From contig JAGBFS010000021.1 in NCBI GenBank assembly GCA_017936365.1, forward strand, positions 1-55,699: DNA of 55,699 bases, in the 5' to 3' direction. Below are positions 6,699 to 31,112 of this stretch, piece after piece; within the stretch, counting starts at the first letter, position 1, and each line of letters opens with the position of its first letter. Source of the DNA: Clostridia bacterium. Its GTDB lineage: Bacteria; Bacillota; Clostridia; Oscillospirales; Acutalibacteraceae. The notes below the pieces were generated by a model that saw nothing but the letters and a program-made list of their open reading frames with translations, did no database searches and was not told the origin of the DNA. Made by a program: the position numbers and the translations under genes.

Positions 6699-7562
6699 AT
6701 GAATATAAGAACCCTGTTCGACAATAAAAAACCGGTTTTTTCGCTTGAAATATTTCCGCCCAAGCGTTCTTCATCCATCGACAGCATCTACAGCAAGTTA
6801 GACAGCTTTATGGAGGTAAAACCCGACTATATAAGCGTAACCTTTGGCGCCGGCGGAAGCGAAAACGAAAACCTCACCTGCAAGCTTGCCTCGGATATAA
6901 AGACGAAATACGGTGTTGAGCCGCTCGCACACCTCACCTGCATACATTCAACACGCCAGCAGATCGACGCACAGCTTAACGCATTGAAAAACGCCGGAAT
7001 TGAAAACGTGCTGGCTCTGCGCGGTGACCGTGTGGAGGGCATGGAGCCAACCCGTGACTTTGCTCACGCAAGCGACCTTGCCGCATACATAAAGGATTTC
7101 GGCGGCTTCAATATAGTCGGCGCGTGCTATCCGGAGGGACATCCCGAATGCAGCTCCAGAGGCCAGGATACTTTCAACCTCCGATACAAGGTGGATGCCG
7201 GCGTTACACATCTTAATTCACAGCTCTTCTTTTCCAACGATGACTTTTATGCCTTTCTGGAAAGACTCCGCGCGGCCGGAATCAACGTCCCTGTCGAAGC
7301 CGGCATAATGGCCGTAACCAACAAAAACCAGATCGAACGCATGGTATCTCTGTGCGGAGCAAGTCTGCCGGCAAAATTCACACGCATAATGGCGCGCTAT
7401 GAAAGCAACCCTGCGGCTCTCTTTGACGCGGGTATCGCCTATGCCGTGAACCAGATCGTTGACCTCATCGGAAGCGGAGTGGACGGTATACACCTTTATA
7501 CCATGAACAATCCGGAGGTCGCTCTTCGTATATACAGCGCTGTTCGCAATCTTCTCAACTAA
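6699..7562 (+). CDS. metF: Methylenetetrahydrofolate reductase
   Basis: FSLEIFPPK N-terminus, SVTFGAGGS and LALRGD motifs. AAGGAG SD upstream. Confidence 0.9.
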   Translation: MNIRTLFDNKKPVFSLEIFPPKRSSSIDSIYSKLDSFMEVKPDYISVTFGAGGSENENLTCKLASDIKTKYGVEPLAHLTCIHSTRQQIDAQLNALKNAGIENVLALRGDRVEGMEPTRDFAHASDLAAYIKDFGGFNIVGACYPEGHPECSSRGQDTFNLRYKVDAGVTHLNSQLFFSNDDFYAFLERLRAAGINVPVEAGIMAVTNKNQIERMVSLCGASLPAKFTRIMARYESNPAALFDAGIAYAVNQIVDLIGSGVDGIHLYTMNNPEVALRIYSAVRNLLN

Positions 7563-7695
7563 AGAATAAATATATTCCTTTCTGCAAATGATATTATCAA
7601 TACCGCGAAAAGGATCAAACTGCGGTTTTACGCTGCGCCTGCTGTCGGGCACACCGTAAAGCCGCATACTTTTCGAAGAAAGGAATATTTATAAA

Positions 7696-8124
7696 ATGTC
7701 TGAAAACAGAGAATTACTTGAAAGCATATATAAAAATGCCGAGATGGGACGCGATTCCATCGAACAACTCACCGAGCGTACCGACAACGAAAACTTTCGC
7801 GACGCCTTAAACCAGCAGCGAAGCGAGTACCAAAGCATCATGGACGATGCTCGCAGGCTCCTTTCCGATCACGGCCACTCTCCCGAAGGCGTAAGTAACA
7901 TGGCAAAAACCTCCGCCCGAATGATGGCAAGCGCAAAAACCTCGATCGATCCGTCGGTCGGAAACATGGCCGAAATGATGATAAAGGGCAGTACAAAAGG
8001 TATCGTCAAGCTCACCTCCGAGCTGAACGGTTATACAAATCTTGACACCGATGTCCACACCCTTGCAAACAAGCTTCTTCACACCGAACAGAATAATATA
8101 GACCAGATGAAATCATTTCTCTGA
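7696..8124 (+). CDS. Hypothetical helical protein (four-helix-bundle-like)
   Basis: 142-aa ORF with SD and downstream terminator. No recognisable catalytic motif. Confidence 0.55.
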   Translation: MSENRELLESIYKNAEMGRDSIEQLTERTDNENFRDALNQQRSEYQSIMDDARRLLSDHGHSPEGVSNMAKTSARMMASAKTSIDPSVGNMAEMMIKGSTKGIVKLTSELNGYTNLDTDVHTLANKLLHTEQNNIDQMKSFL

Positions 8125-8134
8125 TAAAAAATTA

Positions 8135-8166
8135 AGGACCGGCGAATATCGTCGGTCCTGTTTTAT
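8135..8166 (+). terminator. Rho-independent terminator
   Basis: aggaccg...cggtcct stem followed by a T-rich tract. Confidence 0.6.
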
Positions 8167-8177
8167 TGTTTTTAATT

Positions 8178-8870
8178 TTAGCCTCTTTCGTTGCGACGAA
8201 GCTCTACCGCAATGCCAAATATGCGGACATTCTTTTCCACAAGCTCTGCCGTTGTAAGATAGAACTCCTCCTGAATAGGATCAAGCGGATAGATAACCTT
8301 ACCCTCGCGCTTCTGCGTAACTCTTGCAAGGAAAGCATCCTGTCCGTCCATTGCAATGATGCAGGTCTGATCCTTTTTGGGCTTCTGTTTTCTTTCAAAA
8401 ACAAGGAGATCACCGGAAAAATATCTCGGCGCAAGACGTCCGTTAGGTATGCGATAGCCGAAATATTCCCTGCCGCCCACAAGCCATGCTGTGGGGACAA
8501 GCTCGGTAACGGTCTCGTCAAGCTCGCCGGCATCGGGGCCCGTCATTTTTGTGAATACCTTTATGGAAAAACCTGTGGTCTCAACACCCTGTGCCGGTGT
8601 AGGCTCACACATAACATCGGTCTTTCCGAGGATATAGTCGCTTGAAACACCAAGTATCTTGCTAAGGCAATAGATCGTGCTTGCCGAAGGCTCATGGATA
8701 CCGTTTTCGTATTTCGATATCATTCCCTTGTTTGTGTTTGCTCCAAAATCTCTGTTGAGTCTGTCGGCGATATCGTTGAGGGAGAGTCCTGCATCTCTCC
8801 GGACAGCGTTAAGACGCTTTCCGATCTCAATCATGCTCGCCTTCTTTTCTGCTGTGGTAGGTTTTCTCAT
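8178..8870 (-). CDS. XRE-family HTH repressor fused to an S24 (LexA/CI)-like C-terminal domain
   Basis: The N-terminus has the IGKRL...R...GLS...A..L... HTH pattern. The C-terminus ends ...IFGIAVELRRN as in CI/LexA S24 domains. ATG at 8870 follows GGAGTG. Confidence 0.78.
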   Translation of the reverse strand: MRKPTTAEKKASMIEIGKRLNAVRRDAGLSLNDIADRLNRDFGANTNKGMISKYENGIHEPSASTIYCLSKILGVSSDYILGKTDVMCEPTPAQGVETTGFSIKVFTKMTGPDAGELDETVTELVPTAWLVGGREYFGYRIPNGRLAPRYFSGDLLVFERKQKPKKDQTCIIAMDGQDAFLARVTQKREGKVIYPLDPIQEEFYLTTAELVEKNVRIFGIAVELRRNERG

Positions 8871-9059
8871 AATTAACACTCCTGTATTATATTATATGAA
8901 CATTTTCATGCCCATAAAATCTGCCCATACCCCCATACATGACCAATTATATCACATTATTTCCAAAAATAAAATACCTATATCTCAACTTTCTGCATAT
9001 CCAAACATATAATCTTTAAATTATGCACCCATGCATATCAATCGCCCCATATCATAACG

Positions 9060-10004
9060 TTATTTCGTTTTTCGCTTTCTGCTCACCGCTTTTATCATTG
9101 CTTCAAGCGGAGCTCTGGCACTCTCTGCCAGATCAAAGGGCAGAATTATCTGCTCTCCTGCCTCACCCTTCAGCGCTCGTTCGACCACCTCAAGGGTGGT
9201 CAGCCGCATACTGTTGCATATCAGCTTGCTCGGTGCAAGCTGTCTGAAAAAGCGTTCCGGATATTTCCTGTACAATCTGCCGTGTATCGAAATCTCATCA
9301 CAAATTATTACCTCATGAAGCGACTTATTGCAATACTCAACTATCTCGCCGGTACTTGCACAAAAATCAGCAAGCTTCCTTACCTCCGACCGACAGGCGT
9401 TATTGACCACGACCGGCACCCCCGGCCACTTCTGCCTTGCAAGCTCTATATCGGATATATCCACGCTTCGCAAAACCGGACAACCGCCCGGCCAGACCTC
9501 GATCTCTTTTTCCGGCATATTCTCTTTCAGATAATTACCAAGGCTTTCGTCGGGCAAAAAAAGTATCTTGTCCTTCTTTACCGACGACGCTACGCGGAGA
9601 ATATTTTCCGCATCCGCACAAATATCCGCTTCGGCTTTTATCTCCAGACTGCTGTTGATGCTTGCCATTATGCATACATCGGGGTTGTCCTCCCGATACT
9701 TGCGCACGCGCACCGCACTCATCTGTCCGGTGACCGGGCAGATGGCCTGCGAATGGGATAATCTTATATTTTTATCCGGCGCCATAACCGCTGCAGTTTC
9801 AGCTGTATATCTAACCGAGCATATCAGTATATTTTTTTGCTTTGCCTGCTCTGCGGCAAGCGCCATGCCAAGACTGTCTCCGCAATAGTCTGCAACCTCG
9901 ATTATATCGGGATCCATATAATTGTGCGCAAATATCGCTGTGTCTGTCTCTCTTTTAAGCTGTTTAATATCTTCTATCAAAACGATCGGTTCACGAACCG
10001 GCAT
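9060..10004 (-). CDS. Quinolinate-synthase (NadA)-like paralog, degenerate active site
   Basis: Collinear with the canonical NadA at 12013-12933 (AH.Y, GDS, R..AET, LSH...CP, GGCP, C..MRLTT). However HPEC is replaced by NNAC, YINTT by SINSS and GTEN by CDEI. Confidence 0.72.
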   Translation of the reverse strand: MPVREPIVLIEDIKQLKRETDTAIFAHNYMDPDIIEVADYCGDSLGMALAAEQAKQKNILICSVRYTAETAAVMAPDKNIRLSHSQAICPVTGQMSAVRVRKYREDNPDVCIMASINSSLEIKAEADICADAENILRVASSVKKDKILFLPDESLGNYLKENMPEKEIEVWPGGCPVLRSVDISDIELARQKWPGVPVVVNNACRSEVRKLADFCASTGEIVEYCNKSLHEVIICDEISIHGRLYRKYPERFFRQLAPSKLICNSMRLTTLEVVERALKGEAGEQIILPFDLAESARAPLEAMIKAVSRKRKTK

Positions 10005-10242
10005 CTGTCATTCCTCCGTATATATAAAGCATATAGCTGTATGCCAAAAACTCTGATTAAATATTACAATGCAAATTTTAAGAATACAACCGAAATCTTG
10101 TTAAGTTTTCTTTGCCGCGGCGAAAATTTTAATAACTGCGCTCAAATGCGATAAATATTCACATTTTTCCTGTTGAAATATTGCCCTGTACGGTGTTATA
10201 TTATAATGTATATGATAACGTTTTACCGGAAGGAATGATTCC

Positions 10243-11961
10243 ATGCTAAATCAGGTCATCCCTCCCTATGAGGGGAATCAGCCTTTTCTTTACGCCTGTT
10301 ACTGCGCCGAAGATGAGGCATTGGCCTTTCCTATACTTGCAAGAATGTACAACGAGGGTTTCAGGCTCTTTTCAGCCCTCGCTTGCAGAAGCGACCGTCA
10401 CAGCAAAAAGGGCGACAATGACTTCCGCTCGGTTCAGCGTCTTAACGCCAGCTCCAGCGTCATACTTTTCATGTCGCACAATATGCTTGACCGTATCCGC
10501 CGCAGCGACCCGGAAGTTATAACAGCGGTCAAGAGTGCCAGCTTAAGAGTGGTAGTCCAGCTTGACGGCAGCGAACCGTCCGGCGATATCTATGCGCTTT
10601 CGGTTCCCGACCATATCGAATATTCACACGGCAACGATGCCCCATTCTGGCTGTACATCTATAGCTCTGACGCGCTTGAAAAATGCCGCGGCCCCTGGCC
10701 GGAGGAAAGCAAGCGCCTTCGCATGACCGAATCCAATTTTGAAGATGTTTCCGAAGAAGCCCTTTCCGAAGAATACTTCCAGCTTGAAAACATTCTTTCG
10801 GGCAAATCGGCCGCACAACCCCAGAAACAGGAAACCTATATAAACAACGGCGGATATATCATGCCCGTCCCCGACGAATATGTCTATATCCCGCTTGATT
10901 ACACCGGTGATAAGCAATTCGATGAGGTTTTCGGACTTCTCAACAAAGAAGCCGAACACGCTCATGCAGTAGCTACCGCTCCTTTAAAAACCGAATTGCC
11001 GCCGCAGCCGACAGAAGAGTCTTACCCCGAACCAAACTGGGATGCCGCACCGAAGCACCAAATAACAGAAGAACTGCCCCCACCACCGCCTGTTCAGCAG
11101 GATGCACCTGAAATAAAGGCCGACACAATCGTCGATCTGTCCGAGCCTGTTGAGCAAGTCGAGCCCGAATCGGAACCGATAGCGGAAGCATCTCTCTCCC
11201 CCGCCGAAGTGGAGGAAGAAGCCACAACCGAACCCGAAGCCCCGACGTCCGAACCGGAACCGCAGCCGACACCCGCCGCCGAAGAGCCCGCCGTTCTTCC
11301 CGAACCGGAGCCCTTGCCGGAACAAAAAAGCGAACCTGCAAAGCCCTCCAGCGTTCCGGTAATGGTTAAAACCGCATCCCGCCGCCGTGTACGCACAAGC
11401 GTTACTGCGGTAAGACGCACAAAGGTTGCCGCTTCTCACATGACTCTTGAACCCGATTCCTCCGCTCTTATTGAGGCCAACATGAGGGATCGCGCATATC
11501 TGCAAAACTACGCCCGACGGCTTGTAAGAGAAGCTATGGCCGAAACCGTCCCTCTGCTCAAGGCTGAAGCTCTGTCCGCCGTTCAGCCGACCGAACCGGA
11601 GGCTCCGGCAGAAACCAAAAGAAAACACAGCCGCAAACCGACCGCACCTGTACTGCAGGCCGCCGTCGAACCGATCAATATAAATCAACAGCCCGAGCCC
11701 GCCGCAAAAGCATCGGCCGCCGAACCCGCTGCGGAGGATACCGTAAAGGGCCGCAAAAACAAGCATCCCCATTCCAAGGGACTTTCCGGTTTGTTTGCCG
11801 CGCTGAAAGCAAAACGCAGAGAAAAGGATACAACGATTGAAAACGCTCCTGCTACAGTACCCGAACCCGATATCGACGATCTTCTTCCCGAGCCAAAAGA
11901 GGATACCCCTGTTTTGGAGGCCGCCGTTTCAAAATTCATGCGAAAGTCAGCAGGAAAATAA
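10243..11961 (+). CDS. TIR-like N-terminal domain protein with a roughly 400-aa Pro/Glu/Ala-rich low-complexity tail
   Basis: The N-terminus YEGNQPFLYACYCAEDEALAFPILARMYNEGFRLF...VILFMSHNML matches the beta-alpha-beta pattern of bacterial TIR_2 domains. The rest is PE-rich. Confidence 0.55.
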   Translation: MLNQVIPPYEGNQPFLYACYCAEDEALAFPILARMYNEGFRLFSALACRSDRHSKKGDNDFRSVQRLNASSSVILFMSHNMLDRIRRSDPEVITAVKSASLRVVVQLDGSEPSGDIYALSVPDHIEYSHGNDAPFWLYIYSSDALEKCRGPWPEESKRLRMTESNFEDVSEEALSEEYFQLENILSGKSAAQPQKQETYINNGGYIMPVPDEYVYIPLDYTGDKQFDEVFGLLNKEAEHAHAVATAPLKTELPPQPTEESYPEPNWDAAPKHQITEELPPPPPVQQDAPEIKADTIVDLSEPVEQVEPESEPIAEASLSPAEVEEEATTEPEAPTSEPEPQPTPAAEEPAVLPEPEPLPEQKSEPAKPSSVPVMVKTASRRRVRTSVTAVRRTKVAASHMTLEPDSSALIEANMRDRAYLQNYARRLVREAMAETVPLLKAEALSAVQPTEPEAPAETKRKHSRKPTAPVLQAAVEPININQQPEPAAKASAAEPAAEDTVKGRKNKHPHSKGLSGLFAALKAKRREKDTTIENAPATVPEPDIDDLLPEPKEDTPVLEAAVSKFMRKSAGK

Positions 11962-11972
11962 TATAACCGCAT

Positions 11973-12007
11973 AAAAAAAGACCGACATCGAATGATGTCG
12001 GTCTTTC
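11973..12007. terminator. Bidirectional terminator between convergent genes
   Basis: aaaaaaagaccgacatc gaat gatgtcggtcttt. Confidence 0.7.
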
Positions 12008-12012
12008 AATAT

Positions 12013-12933
12013 TTATTTTGAATAATAAAGCATAGCGTCAATACACTTTTTGGCCTTTATGCGCTGTTCTTCCGACATTACTATCTCTTCGCCGCTCTCG
12101 CCCTTTACACAGCGATAAACATCCATCAATGTCGTAAGCCTCATATCATCACACACGCAGCCCTTTGACAGCATATAGAAGCTCTTGTCGGGATGGCTGA
12201 ACTGCAGGTGCTGAACGATACTGTTTTCCGTTCCGATAATGAACTCTTTTGCATCGCTTTTTTCCACAAATGCCGATATGCCGGTAGTGCTTCCTATATA
12301 ATCGGCATACGCGCTGACCTCTTCACGGCATTCCGGATGAATCAGCAAAAGCGCATTGGGGTGCAGTCTTTTTGCCTCTTTCACATCATCGACAGTAATG
12401 CTCATATGTATCGGACAGCCGCCCTTTATAAAATGGAAATTCTTCTCCGGGAGCTGTGCCGCTATCCACGAACCAAGATTGCAGTCCGGAATAAACAGAA
12501 TATCTTTATTCGGCAGATTCTTTACAACCTCGAGCGCAGATGCCGATGTTACACACACATCACATTCGGTCTTCAGCTCGGCTGTTGTGTTGATATAGGC
12601 CACCACAGCACAATCCTTATATTGCTTTTTCAGCTCGCGAAGCTCATCGATCGTCAACTGCTCCGCCATCGGACAGCCGGCCTGAGGATGGGAAAGTATT
12701 ACCTTCTTTTCCGGCGAAAGTATTTTTACCGTTTCGGCCATAAAGCGGACTCCGCACATCAAAAGGGTGTTTTGCTGTGCCTTCTGCGCCTGACTGCTCA
12801 GCCCGAACGAGTCGCCGATAAAATCGGCTACTTCCAATATATCCTGCGTCTGATAAGCGTGCGCCAGTATGCACACATCGTTTTCTTTCTTCAGACGTAT
12901 AATCTCATCCTGTAATTCCTTGATGTTGATCAT
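12013..12933 (-). CDS. nadA: Quinolinate synthase NadA
   Basis: Full motif set is present (AHAY, GDS, RFMAET, GCPMA, YINTT, GGCPIH, HPEC, IGTEN, C.CDDMRLTT). ATG at 12933 lies 5 nt after GGAGG; the track start at 12939 is GTG. Confidence 0.92.
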   Translation of the reverse strand: MINIKELQDEIIRLKKENDVCILAHAYQTQDILEVADFIGDSFGLSSQAQKAQQNTLLMCGVRFMAETVKILSPEKKVILSHPQAGCPMAEQLTIDELRELKKQYKDCAVVAYINTTAELKTECDVCVTSASALEVVKNLPNKDILFIPDCNLGSWIAAQLPEKNFHFIKGGCPIHMSITVDDVKEAKRLHPNALLLIHPECREEVSAYADYIGSTTGISAFVEKSDAKEFIIGTENSIVQHLQFSHPDKSFYMLSKGCVCDDMRLTTLMDVYRCVKGESGEEIVMSEEQRIKAKKCIDAMLYYSK

Positions 12934-12982
12934 AGCCACCTCCCGACCAATTAAACAGTATTATAATAAAAACCGACGCAGG

Positions 12983-13014
12983 TGTCAAGACATATATTGA
13001 CATGTGTCTTGACA
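12983..13014. promoter_or_regulatory. Pair of inverted 10-mers, TGTCAAGACA (12983-12992) and TGTCTTGACA (13005-13014): candidate NiaR operator
   Basis: The two 10-mers are exact reverse complements in the nadA/nadB divergent intergenic region. They overlap the nadB promoter, and niaR is encoded in the same operon. Confidence 0.6.
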
Positions 13015-13025
13015 TATAGTAAAAT
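12997..13025 (+). promoter_or_regulatory. Sigma-A-type promoter of nadB-nadC-niaR
   Basis: TTGACA (12997-13002), 17-bp spacer, TAAAAT (13020-13025), 35 nt upstream of the nadB ATG. Confidence 0.6.
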
Positions 13026-13060
13026 ATATGCCATCTTGATGTGAATTTGGAAGGAATAAA

Positions 13061-14344
13061 ATGGAAACCGATATTTTAATTGTCGGCAGCGGGTGCTCCG
13101 GTCTGTACTGCGCCCTCTGTCTGCCGGACGACAAAAAAATAACCGTTATCACAAAATCTGCCGTCGAGGAAAGCGATTCTTTTCTTGCACAGGGCGGTAT
13201 TTGTGTGCTGAAAGACGAAAGCGACTTCGATTCCTTTTTTGAAGATACCCTAAAAGCCGGTCATTATGAAAACGACCGCGAAAGCGTAAAAATAATGATA
13301 GAATCCTCACGCGATGTCATTTCCGACCTTGTTGGATTCGGAGTCGACTTCTGCCGCGATGATGACGGTAATTTCCGTTACACACGCGAGGGTGCTCATT
13401 CCCAAAGCCGCATCCTGTATCACAAGGATATAACCGGTCGGGAAATCACCTCAAAGCTGCTTGCCCGCGCGCGCGAACGAGCCAACATAAAAATCCTCGA
13501 AAACACCACCTTGCTTGATATAATTGAGCAGAGCGGCGAATGTGTCGGCGCGGTAATATTAAATAACCACGGCGAAACAAAAACGATCAAGGCCGATTTT
13601 ACCGTTCTTGCCACCGGCGGTATTGGCGGACTTTTTAAACACTCCACCAACTTCCGCCATCTTACCGGCGATGCGCTTGCCATTGCGCTTGACCATGGCA
13701 TCGCTTTGAAAAATCCGGATTATGTTCAAATCCATCCGACCACCCTTTATTCCCCAAACGACCGCGACCGCTGTTTTCTGATATCCGAATCGGTAAGAGG
13801 CGAGGGCGCAAAACTTTACAACAAAAACATGGAGCGCTTTGTGGACGAACTTCTCCCACGCGACCTGCTGACAAAAGCCATTCACAAGCAGATGGCTCTG
13901 GACGGCAGCAACTTTGTCTGGGAGGATCTTCGCCCCATCCCCGAAGATATACTTCGCGAACACTTTCCCAATATAGTTGAGCACTGCAGGTCAAAGGGCT
14001 ATGACGTAACAAAGCAATGCATACCGGTCGTTCCGGCTCAGCATTACTTCATGGGCGGCGTAAAAATCGATCATTTCGGAAAAACGTCAATGCCCAATCT
14101 TTACGCCGTCGGCGAGACCGCCTGCAACTCGGTTCACGGAAAGAACCGTCTTGCAAGCAATTCATTACTCGAAAGTCTTGTTTTTGCAAAACGAGCCGCC
14201 CGTGATATAAATCAACACCCCGCAATTGACCACCGGCCGCTTCCGCCGGTCGATCTTAATCGGTATGCTGATATTAAAGCATTGGAGCGCCGATACAAAA
14301 AAATCGTACTTGAAGAAATAAACAGGAGGAACGAAAATGTTTGA
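13061..14344 (+). CDS. nadB: L-aspartate oxidase
   Basis: DILIVGSG.SG FAD-binding N-terminus, AQGGI, and HYFMGG motif near the C-terminus. Operon with nadC. Confidence 0.93.
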   Translation: METDILIVGSGCSGLYCALCLPDDKKITVITKSAVEESDSFLAQGGICVLKDESDFDSFFEDTLKAGHYENDRESVKIMIESSRDVISDLVGFGVDFCRDDDGNFRYTREGAHSQSRILYHKDITGREITSKLLARARERANIKILENTTLLDIIEQSGECVGAVILNNHGETKTIKADFTVLATGGIGGLFKHSTNFRHLTGDALAIALDHGIALKNPDYVQIHPTTLYSPNDRDRCFLISESVRGEGAKLYNKNMERFVDELLPRDLLTKAIHKQMALDGSNFVWEDLRPIPEDILREHFPNIVEHCRSKGYDVTKQCIPVVPAQHYFMGGVKIDHFGKTSMPNLYAVGETACNSVHGKNRLASNSLLESLVFAKRAARDINQHPAIDHRPLPPVDLNRYADIKALERRYKKIVLEEINRRNENV

Positions 14345-30428: not shown

Positions 30429-31112
30429 TTATTTGTTCTGCGGTAAAACAACCGTCTTTTCAATAACGATCTCGGGACGCTTCTCTGCAGGCTTTTCTGC
30501 CTTTTCCTCTTTTTCTTCCTTCTTTACTTCATTTGTTTCTGCAGGCTTCTGCTCCTGTTTGAAATCATTCTGACGTCTGCCGTTCTTATTCTTTTTGTTT
30601 CTGCCTCGGTTTTTATCGGTACTGTCGATAGCACTTCCATCCTTCATGAGCTGGAGCATGCAGTTGTCCAAAACCTCACGATGATAAATATATCTTGTAA
30701 CATTGCTCATAACCGGGCGTGTCTTGACAACCTCAACACCGTCAACGATGTCATAATACTCCTCTTCCCCAACCTGCTCAAGTGTGGTAAGAGATACAAA
30801 TGAGCCCTGCAGCATACCGTTAACGCGCATATAGTCGAGCTCATTAAGAGATACACCGAGATAATCTGCTGCATCATACTCCGTAAGGAAGCTGAGCATC
30901 GGCTGCTGAAGCGACATCGTCGAGCTGTCTTTTTTGCCGCGGCCAACGGTCATTCCGCTTACCAGAAGGAATGCCGCACCGACAATACTTATGCTTAAAA
31001 TGATAATACCAATAATAAACGCTGCTGTATTCATAATTAATTCAACCATACCTTTCTGCTCATAAATGATTGAGCTCTCAAGATCCGAATCTAACATTTC
31101 ATATGGAATCAA
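30429..31112 (-). CDS. Hypothetical membrane-anchored protein with an excisionase/MerR-like HTH segment and a Lys/Glu-rich tail (start uncertain: 31112 TTG, 31049 or 31034 ATG)
   Basis: One TM helix (AAFIIGIIILSISIVGAAFLLV), then ...EYDAADYLGVSLNELDYMRVNG..., then a KE-rich tail. Confidence 0.6.
   Translation of the reverse strand: MIPYEMLDSDLESSIIYEQKGMVELIMNTAAFIIGIIILSISIVGAAFLLVSGMTVGRGKKDSSTMSLQQPMLSFLTEYDAADYLGVSLNELDYMRVNGMLQGSFVSLTTLEQVGEEEYYDIVDGVEVVKTRPVMSNVTRYIYHREVLDNCMLQLMKDGSAIDSTDKNRGRNKKNKNGRRQNDFKQEQKPAETNEVKKEEKEEKAEKPAEKRPEIVIEKTVVLPQNK

Follow-up and report, generated by a model that had tools for sequence, protein, structure and literature searches.

Quinolinate synthase NadA (EC 2.5.1.72) is usually treated as a single-function housekeeping enzyme. 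Its substrate binds the non-cysteine iron of a [4Fe-4S] cluster, and the free-iron chemistry of aconitase is mentioned in the same work (PMC7725820). In Firmicutes, the nadABC genes for the synthesis of nicotinamide adenine dinucleotide (NAD) are under the control of the niacin-responsive repressor NiaR (YrxA), whose type I operator core is TGT-N4-ACA (PMC2330245). The stretch analyzed here, termed the window, comprises 55,699 nucleotides (positions 1 to 55,699) of contig JAGBFS010000021.1 from a Clostridia bacterium of the Acutalibacteraceae (assembly GCA_017936365.1). It contains a canonical nadA gene (12013..12933, minus strand), used as the comparator, and a second NadA-like gene (9060..10004, minus strand) whose 314-aa product is named NadA*; members of the NadA* clade are called star-type. 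The reading favored here, which we hold tentatively, is that NadA* is an iron-sulfur (Fe-S) pseudoenzyme that persists as sensor or partner of the product of its constant neighbor, the regulatory gene regX.

Cytosolic aconitase (IRP1) and the bacterial aconitases are [4Fe-4S] enzymes with one non-cysteine iron, and the state of their cluster is used in regulation. IRP1 binds RNA itself and remains an enzyme in its holo form, whereas NadA* appears to have dropped catalysis, and any regulation would pass through a separate DNA-binding protein. In B. subtilis, glutamine synthetase is a biosynthetic enzyme that reports metabolite state to a regulatory partner, TnrA or GlnR, and HisZ is a catalytically dead paralog. 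The NadA*-regX pair can be likened to these systems in having an enzyme or dead paralog as partner, but here the regulator would be an XRE/S24-like repressor and the sensor an Fe-S protein. A literature search found no paper on the NadA* clade or on NadA paralogs of such a kind, nor on an XRE/S24-like regulator of a NAD operon.

Fold and active-site columns of NadA*

The NadA* reading frame is intact, with a GGAGG Shine-Dalgarno sequence 9 nt 5' of the ATG. An initial annotation of the window had described the product as collinear with the canonical NadA, and the two indeed align end to end, with 37% identity over 297 residues (E-value 2e-72). It had also proposed comparison with the Pfam profile and superposition on known structures, both of which were carried out. 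Both copies match the NadA profile (PF02445) over positions 2-294 of 295, NadA* scoring 261 bits and the canonical protein 378 bits. NadA* falls under both NCBIfam NadA equivalog cut-offs (250.7 against 294 bits for NF006878, and 217.4 against 262.9 bits for TIGR00550), whereas the canonical protein exceeds them (362 and 298 bits). The AlphaFold2 model of NadA* (pLDDT, the predicted local distance difference test score, 94.6) was compared by Foldseek with the NadA structures of T. maritima (4P3X) and P. horikoshii (4ZK6/5KTN), giving template modeling (TM) scores of 0.90-0.94 and root mean square deviations of 1.6-1.8 Å. NadA* is thus predicted to be a full-length, well-folded protein with the three-domain fold of NadA.

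Residues are numbered here as in T. maritima NadA, to whose chain NadA* was aligned, and conservation was scored in 52-54 canonical NadAs and 12-18 clade members. The three cluster cysteines are kept in NadA* (Cys89, Cys175, and Cys263, equivalent to T. maritima Cys81, Cys168, and Cys254) and are invariant both across the clade and in canonical NadAs. Their contexts, as initially annotated, read ICPV, GGCPV(L), and LICNSMRLTT in NadA* and GCPM, GGCPIH, and CVCDDMRLTT in the canonical copy, and NadA* would be expected to bind a [4Fe-4S] cluster. Other residues kept are His19 (His27 in NadA*), Tyr21 (Tyr29 in NadA*), Asp35, Lys115, Ser209/Thr210, and Glu230. NadA* differs from the enzyme in the replacement of Tyr107 by Ser, Ser124 by Ala, His171 by Leu, His193 and Pro194 by Asn, Glu195 by Ala, and Thr229 by Asp.

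The motif changes first reported (HPEC to NNAC, YINTT to SINSS, IGTEN to ICDEI, and the His of GGCPIH to Leu) are all present. The account needs small amendments, in that NadA* retains Asn109 of the Y.N motif and the Ser-Thr of GST (209/210). In structural work on T. maritima NadA, catalytic roles are reported for His193, Glu195, and Thr229. Titles of Protein Data Bank entries indicate that Tyr21, Ala84, and Ser124 were picked for mutation by crystallographers, and the chain sequences in the T. maritima alignment differ at Tyr107 (Tyr or Phe) and at Ser124 (Ser or Ala).

In the canonical set, Phe58, Ala84, Tyr107, Ser124, His171, His193, Pro194, Glu195, and Thr229 show 98-100% conservation; all clade members have other residues at these sites. 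Asn109, equally conserved in canonical NadAs, varies across the clade, as do the former pocket positions 36, 59, 124, 171, 194, and 195, and the change of Thr229 to Asp is the sole fixed replacement among the old pocket positions. New clade-specific conserved residues are found elsewhere in the protein (R4, D12, D31, Q86, R99, L188, K192, C225, Q255, and K260). To judge from these alignments, the constraint on the old NadA pocket has been relaxed in the clade, not re-specified.

Rarity, selection, and relation to NAD synthesis

The NadA* clade is very rare and was seen only in Acutalibacteraceae, Oscillospiraceae, or Clostridia records. A word-based search of 5.8 billion proteins gave 12 NadA* clusters at 41-89% identity, and a profile search of 1.84 billion representatives recovered two star-type proteins and one of an intermediate type (described below) before scores dropped to ordinary NadAs. 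A scan of 185,579 species genomes added six further star carriers, all Acutalibacteraceae or Oscillospiraceae, so that about 7 of these genomes carry a member of the clade. Of 200 other genomes sampled from the family of the window, none has a star-type copy, and one (G195) has the intermediate, linked to regX.

Beyond this clade, 13 of the 148 top NadA representatives have at least 6 of 20 key sites changed. The metagenomic proteins P0143, P0144, P0156, P0174, P0176, P0188, P0215, P0228, P0268, and P0275 have 7-12 of the 20 changed and keep the three cysteines, His19, and Glu230; one of these degenerate representatives is a 717-aa fusion. Degenerate NadA-fold proteins thus seem to have arisen several times.

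NadA* is under strong purifying selection. The ratio of nonsynonymous to synonymous substitution rates (dN/dS) between the NadA* of the window and its closest relative, L001 (89% aa identity), is 0.058, and that between L004 and L033 is 0.056; in the same two genomes as the window/L001 pair, nadB has a value of 0.067 and canonical nadA one of 0.034. A ratio of 0.058 indicates that the gene is being maintained and is not decaying. NadA* is therefore very unlikely to be a relic without function that is turning into a pseudogene. The presence of a canonical nadA in most carrier genomes, a dN of NadA* about three times that of the canonical copy, and the loss of NadA* beside regX in one genome (G061) would suit such a relic, but the low dN/dS, the clade-specific invariant residues, and, over a range of 38-89% identity, an intact frame in each of the 17 loci speak against it.

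In the window, canonical nadA has all active-site columns intact. Its better start is the ATG at 12933, since this has a Shine-Dalgarno sequence (GGAGG) 5 nt before it, whereas the GTG at 12939 overlaps that sequence. Two inverted exact TGTCTTGACA boxes with the NiaR type I core occur at 12983..13014 (12983-12992, minus strand, and 13005-13014, plus strand), between nadA and nadB-nadC-niaR. No TGT-N4-ACA core is present upstream of NadA* (10005-10242), in agreement with the initial annotation, which had contrasted the two loci in this respect, nor in the spacer between NadA* and regX (8880-9059). A third exact TGTCTTGACA lies at 30720-30729 (plus strand), inside an open reading frame (30429-31112, minus strand) without a Pfam match; it could be another NiaR target or a chance occurrence, as about 2.8 matches with at most one mismatch are expected in the window.

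Five of the six star genomes checked, namely that of the window, G584, G585, G587, and G588, have a canonical nadA-nadB-nadC-niaR set as a separate locus. In one star genome, G586, neither nadC nor NiaR was found; besides NadA* it has a second, weak NadA-family match of 174 bits (C54:27883-28788), which may be a further divergent NadA-like gene. In G195 (85% complete), the intermediate form is the only NadA match, and again nadC and NiaR were not found. Among the sequenced flanks of the clade loci, nad genes occur only in the window and in its near-copy L001, so that nadB/nadC linkage is not a clade-wide trait. The separate nadABC-niaR sets of star genomes, the absence of a detected nadC in G195, and the lack of a NiaR core at the locus indicate that the de novo NAD pathway does not require NadA* and that NadA* is not wired into this pathway.

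That NadA* has remained a quinolinate synthase whose active site is merely unusual can hardly be credited, although the full-length fold, the cluster cysteines, and, in the window, a position 3 kb from nadA and nadBC would be in keeping with this. The full set of sites is carried by 51 of 52 tabulated ordinary NadAs, the exception (L015) being the regX-linked intermediate form, and none of the ordinary NadAs has the star substitutions. The equivalog scores of NadA*, the location of its gene away from nad genes in other genomes, and the occurrence of the intermediate where no nadC was found add to this. The proposal of the initial annotation, a NadA-fold protein repurposed from quinolinate synthesis, thus gains support from site conservation, dN/dS, distribution, and the missing NiaR-type box.

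The neighboring regulator regX and the origin of the pair

The gene regX (8178..8870, minus strand) encodes a regulator with an XRE-type helix-turn-helix (HTH) and an S24-like domain, as judged from domain matches and alignment with LexA. Its likely start is the ATG at 8870, which gives a protein of 230 aa with the N-terminus MRKP, as in homologues. In 17 of 17 loci it lies 3' of the star-type or intermediate NadA-like gene, on the same strand and separated from it by about 180-480 bp; this count includes one locus at a contig end whose downstream gene is a truncated HTH_3 (XRE-type) open reading frame. The initial annotation had suggested a survey of two neighbors in related genomes: the S24-like gene, regX, co-occurs in every locus, whereas the TIR-like gene is confined to one sub-branch and has an insignificant TIR match (TIR_2, E-value 0.13).

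The domain order of RegX, with the HTH at the N-terminus and the S24-like domain at the C-terminus, is that of LexA and lambda CI. An hhalign comparison with LexA of the same genome gave a probability of 87% (E-value 4e-6); in this alignment the Ser of the LexA GESM motif is Arg in RegX, and the Lys of TVKR is Ala. In the regX family, no Ser-Met motif occurs in the Ser column of 26 of 27 members, and the Lys of the S24 dyad is replaced by Ala or Cys. Without this Ser and Lys, the RecA-type self-cleavage switch of LexA and CI should be closed to RegX, and a regulator without a protease switch of its own needs another input. A replacement of LexA by RegX was considered and rejected, as a normal LexA is encoded elsewhere in the genome of the window.

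The regX gene is commoner than NadA* (about 85 clusters). In the order, it was found only in the family of the window, in 6 of 201 genomes, and in none of 374 genomes from 29 other families. Three more distant members (L030 in genome G043, L034, and L035) have a tight nadA-nadB-nadC-regX operon (L030:3963-8099, L034:1629-5708, L035:1667-5687), with regX in fourth place, the slot held elsewhere by niaR. NiaR, searched for by its 3H domain, was not found in G043, which is 98% complete. RegX shares with NiaR the last-gene position in a nadABC operon; its fold is unrelated (XRE HTH and S24-like barrel against HTH_11 and 3H). RegX of the operon type is thus a candidate for a new family of regulators of NAD biosynthesis.

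The 13 star proteins group as one clade in a maximum-likelihood tree, with a support of 97 in the Shimodaira-Hasegawa-like approximate likelihood ratio test (SH-aLRT), and the NadA-like protein of G195 is sister (97) to this clade. Both are in turn sister (94) to the group holding the operon NadAs, and the canonical NadA of the window belongs to another NadA lineage, one common in the family. The two NadA copies of the window are therefore placed by the tree in different lineages and do not stem from a recent duplication. The alternative that the canonical nadA is the foreign gene was rejected, since NadAs of its type (P0002, 49-68% identity) are present in 60 of 200 genomes sampled from the family.

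The intermediate type is represented by L032:6140-7039 (minus strand, in G195), L046:3898-4755, and protein P0142, which are about 70% identical and have the same motif state. It keeps Tyr107, Asn109, His171, and His193 and has the changes P194L, E195G, T210A, and T229A. In both loci with sequence context (G195 and L046) it is followed by regX, and it looks like a frozen first step in the loss of catalysis. The sub-branches of the NadA* tree recur in that of regX, and the operon-type regX genes fall outside a 99%-supported clade of the pair type. The mirrored trees fit a single change from operon to pair, after which the two genes were inherited together, with occasional loss of NadA*, as in G061. 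An ancestral nadABC-regX operon would have lost nadB and nadC, and the nadA left over would have lost catalysis stepwise, first at Pro194, Glu195, Thr210, and Thr229 and later at Tyr107, Ser124, His171, and His193.

Conserved elements are also seen in the noncoding regions. The likely promoter of NadA* (10061..10096, minus strand; TTGTAT-17-TAATAT, preceded by ATTTCGG) was recognized by eye in aligned upstream regions. A block TTTCG(A/G)TTGTATT, which overlaps its -35 element, occurs upstream of NadA* in eight loci of both sub-branches, the window (10083-10096, minus strand), L001, L004, L007, L033, L038, L039, and L040, and is near-identical between the sub-branches although synonymous sites are saturated. 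The spacer between NadA* and regX (8880..9059, minus strand), in which no strong intrinsic terminator was called, contains a block (C/T)TTTC(C/T)TTT..G(A/C)AA, located 6-8 nt before an extended -10 sequence and with AAGG(A/T) upstream of it. This block, common to the window, L001-L007, L028, L032, L033, L036, L039, and L046, would be an operator for autoregulation or else a second type of promoter. Comparison by eye of the NadA*, regX, and operon-type nadA promoters gave no convincing shared palindrome; each class has its own conserved block. An Rfam scan of 7500-13200 yielded neither a riboswitch nor a leader; its only two hits, both below threshold, fall on the terminator that follows the TIR-like gene.

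The outer flanks of the pair differ among loci. Upstream is either the TIR-like protein, of 572-637 aa with a long Pro/Glu-rich tail (window 10243-11961, plus strand; L001:2455-4203, L002:1598-3322, L003:5860-7773), for which no significant family match was obtained, or, in the other NadA* sub-branch, a divergent and unrelated DUF6062 gene in its place. A defense system made up of a TIR-like protein, a NAD gene, and a repressor was rejected, because PADLOC returned nothing for NadA* or the TIR-like protein and because of the weak TIR match and restricted distribution noted above. Downstream are DUF2383, uvrC, or other genes. The DUF2383-like gene, encoding a four-helix-bundle protein of 142-143 aa (window 7696-8124, plus strand; L001:6334-6762, L002:5446-5874, L006:8175-8606), adjoins regX in varying orientation, and uvrC follows regX in L004, L005, L007, and L033. 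These neighbors may hint at a stress-related RegX regulon.

Possible roles of NadA* and their significance

A noncatalytic Fe-S sensor acting with RegX is the best fit to a protein in which the cluster site is intact, the pocket is relaxed, and new positions elsewhere are conserved, and whose one constant neighbor is a regulator without its own switch. NadA*, no longer making quinolinate, would report a ligand at the free iron, either a pyridine carboxylate or a dicarboxylate such as quinolinate or niacin, or alternatively the oxidation state or integrity of an oxygen-labile cluster. Its state would be passed to RegX and would alter repression of the RegX targets. The narrower proposal that NadA* serves as the effector-sensing part of a two-protein switch, controlling a non-cleaving LexA/CI-like repressor that originally governed nadABC, is more doubtful than the general one.

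Several observations weigh against a sensor role. At some pocket sites new residues are conserved (Tyr58, Thr/Ser84, Asn/Ser193, and Asp229), and with the retained His19, Tyr21, and Glu230 these could form a new catalytic site, which would fit the alignments as well. The regX gene has a conserved promoter of its own in the spacer, at 8946-8980 (TTTC-like ... GAAA ... TGnTATAAT), and occurs without a NadA-like neighbor in G061, of the same genus, and in G013 and G155; no remnants of NadA* were found beside regX in G061 and G013. With its own promoter and solitary occurrence, regX is not strictly dependent on NadA*, and the adjacency of the two genes could be inertia from the ancestral operon. 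Cluster binding by NadA* is itself deduced from sequence.

The main rival is a new enzyme, in which the free cluster iron would act as a Lewis acid on another substrate, for instance in the dehydration or condensation of a hydroxy or dicarboxylic acid, with RegX as a local or historical regulator. The retained cysteines and Ser209/Thr210, the pocket residues just mentioned, the strong purifying selection, and the existence of other degenerate NadA-like groups are all compatible with such an activity, which we consider possible but rather unlikely. Seven old pocket positions vary freely in the clade, which is unusual for a site with one substrate; moreover, no metabolic gene is conserved beside the pair, whose flanks vary by sub-branch, and the only constant neighbor encodes a transcription factor.

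A cluster-dependent role unrelated to RegX, such as that of an Fe-S store or carrier or of a protective decoy, is less probable again. It would explain why the cysteine ligands were kept while the pocket relaxed, and the promoter and solitary occurrence of regX would suit an adjacency left over from the old operon. However, the genes have stayed adjacent in all 17 loci despite repeated rearrangement of both outer flanks and saturated synonymous sites, and their trees are mirrored, which together amount to a conserved genetic coupling.

At least one member of the clade is labeled "quinolinate synthase NadA" in a public source. Such labels would over-call de novo NAD synthesis in uncultured Clostridia whose sole copy is NadA-like, G195 being an example. 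The NadA* clade has kept the fold and cluster site of NadA, appears to have dropped the catalytic residues in two visible steps, and has remained linked, under strong selection, to one transcription factor. If the regulatory reading is true, it would provide a clean natural case of an Fe-S enzyme turned sensor and would explain the signal input to a non-cleavable LexA/CI-like repressor. It would also place beside NadR, NiaR, NrtR, and NadQ a candidate for a fifth type of NAD regulator in bacteria, of XRE/S24-like architecture, and would be both a new family of NAD-related regulators and a new use of the NadA fold.

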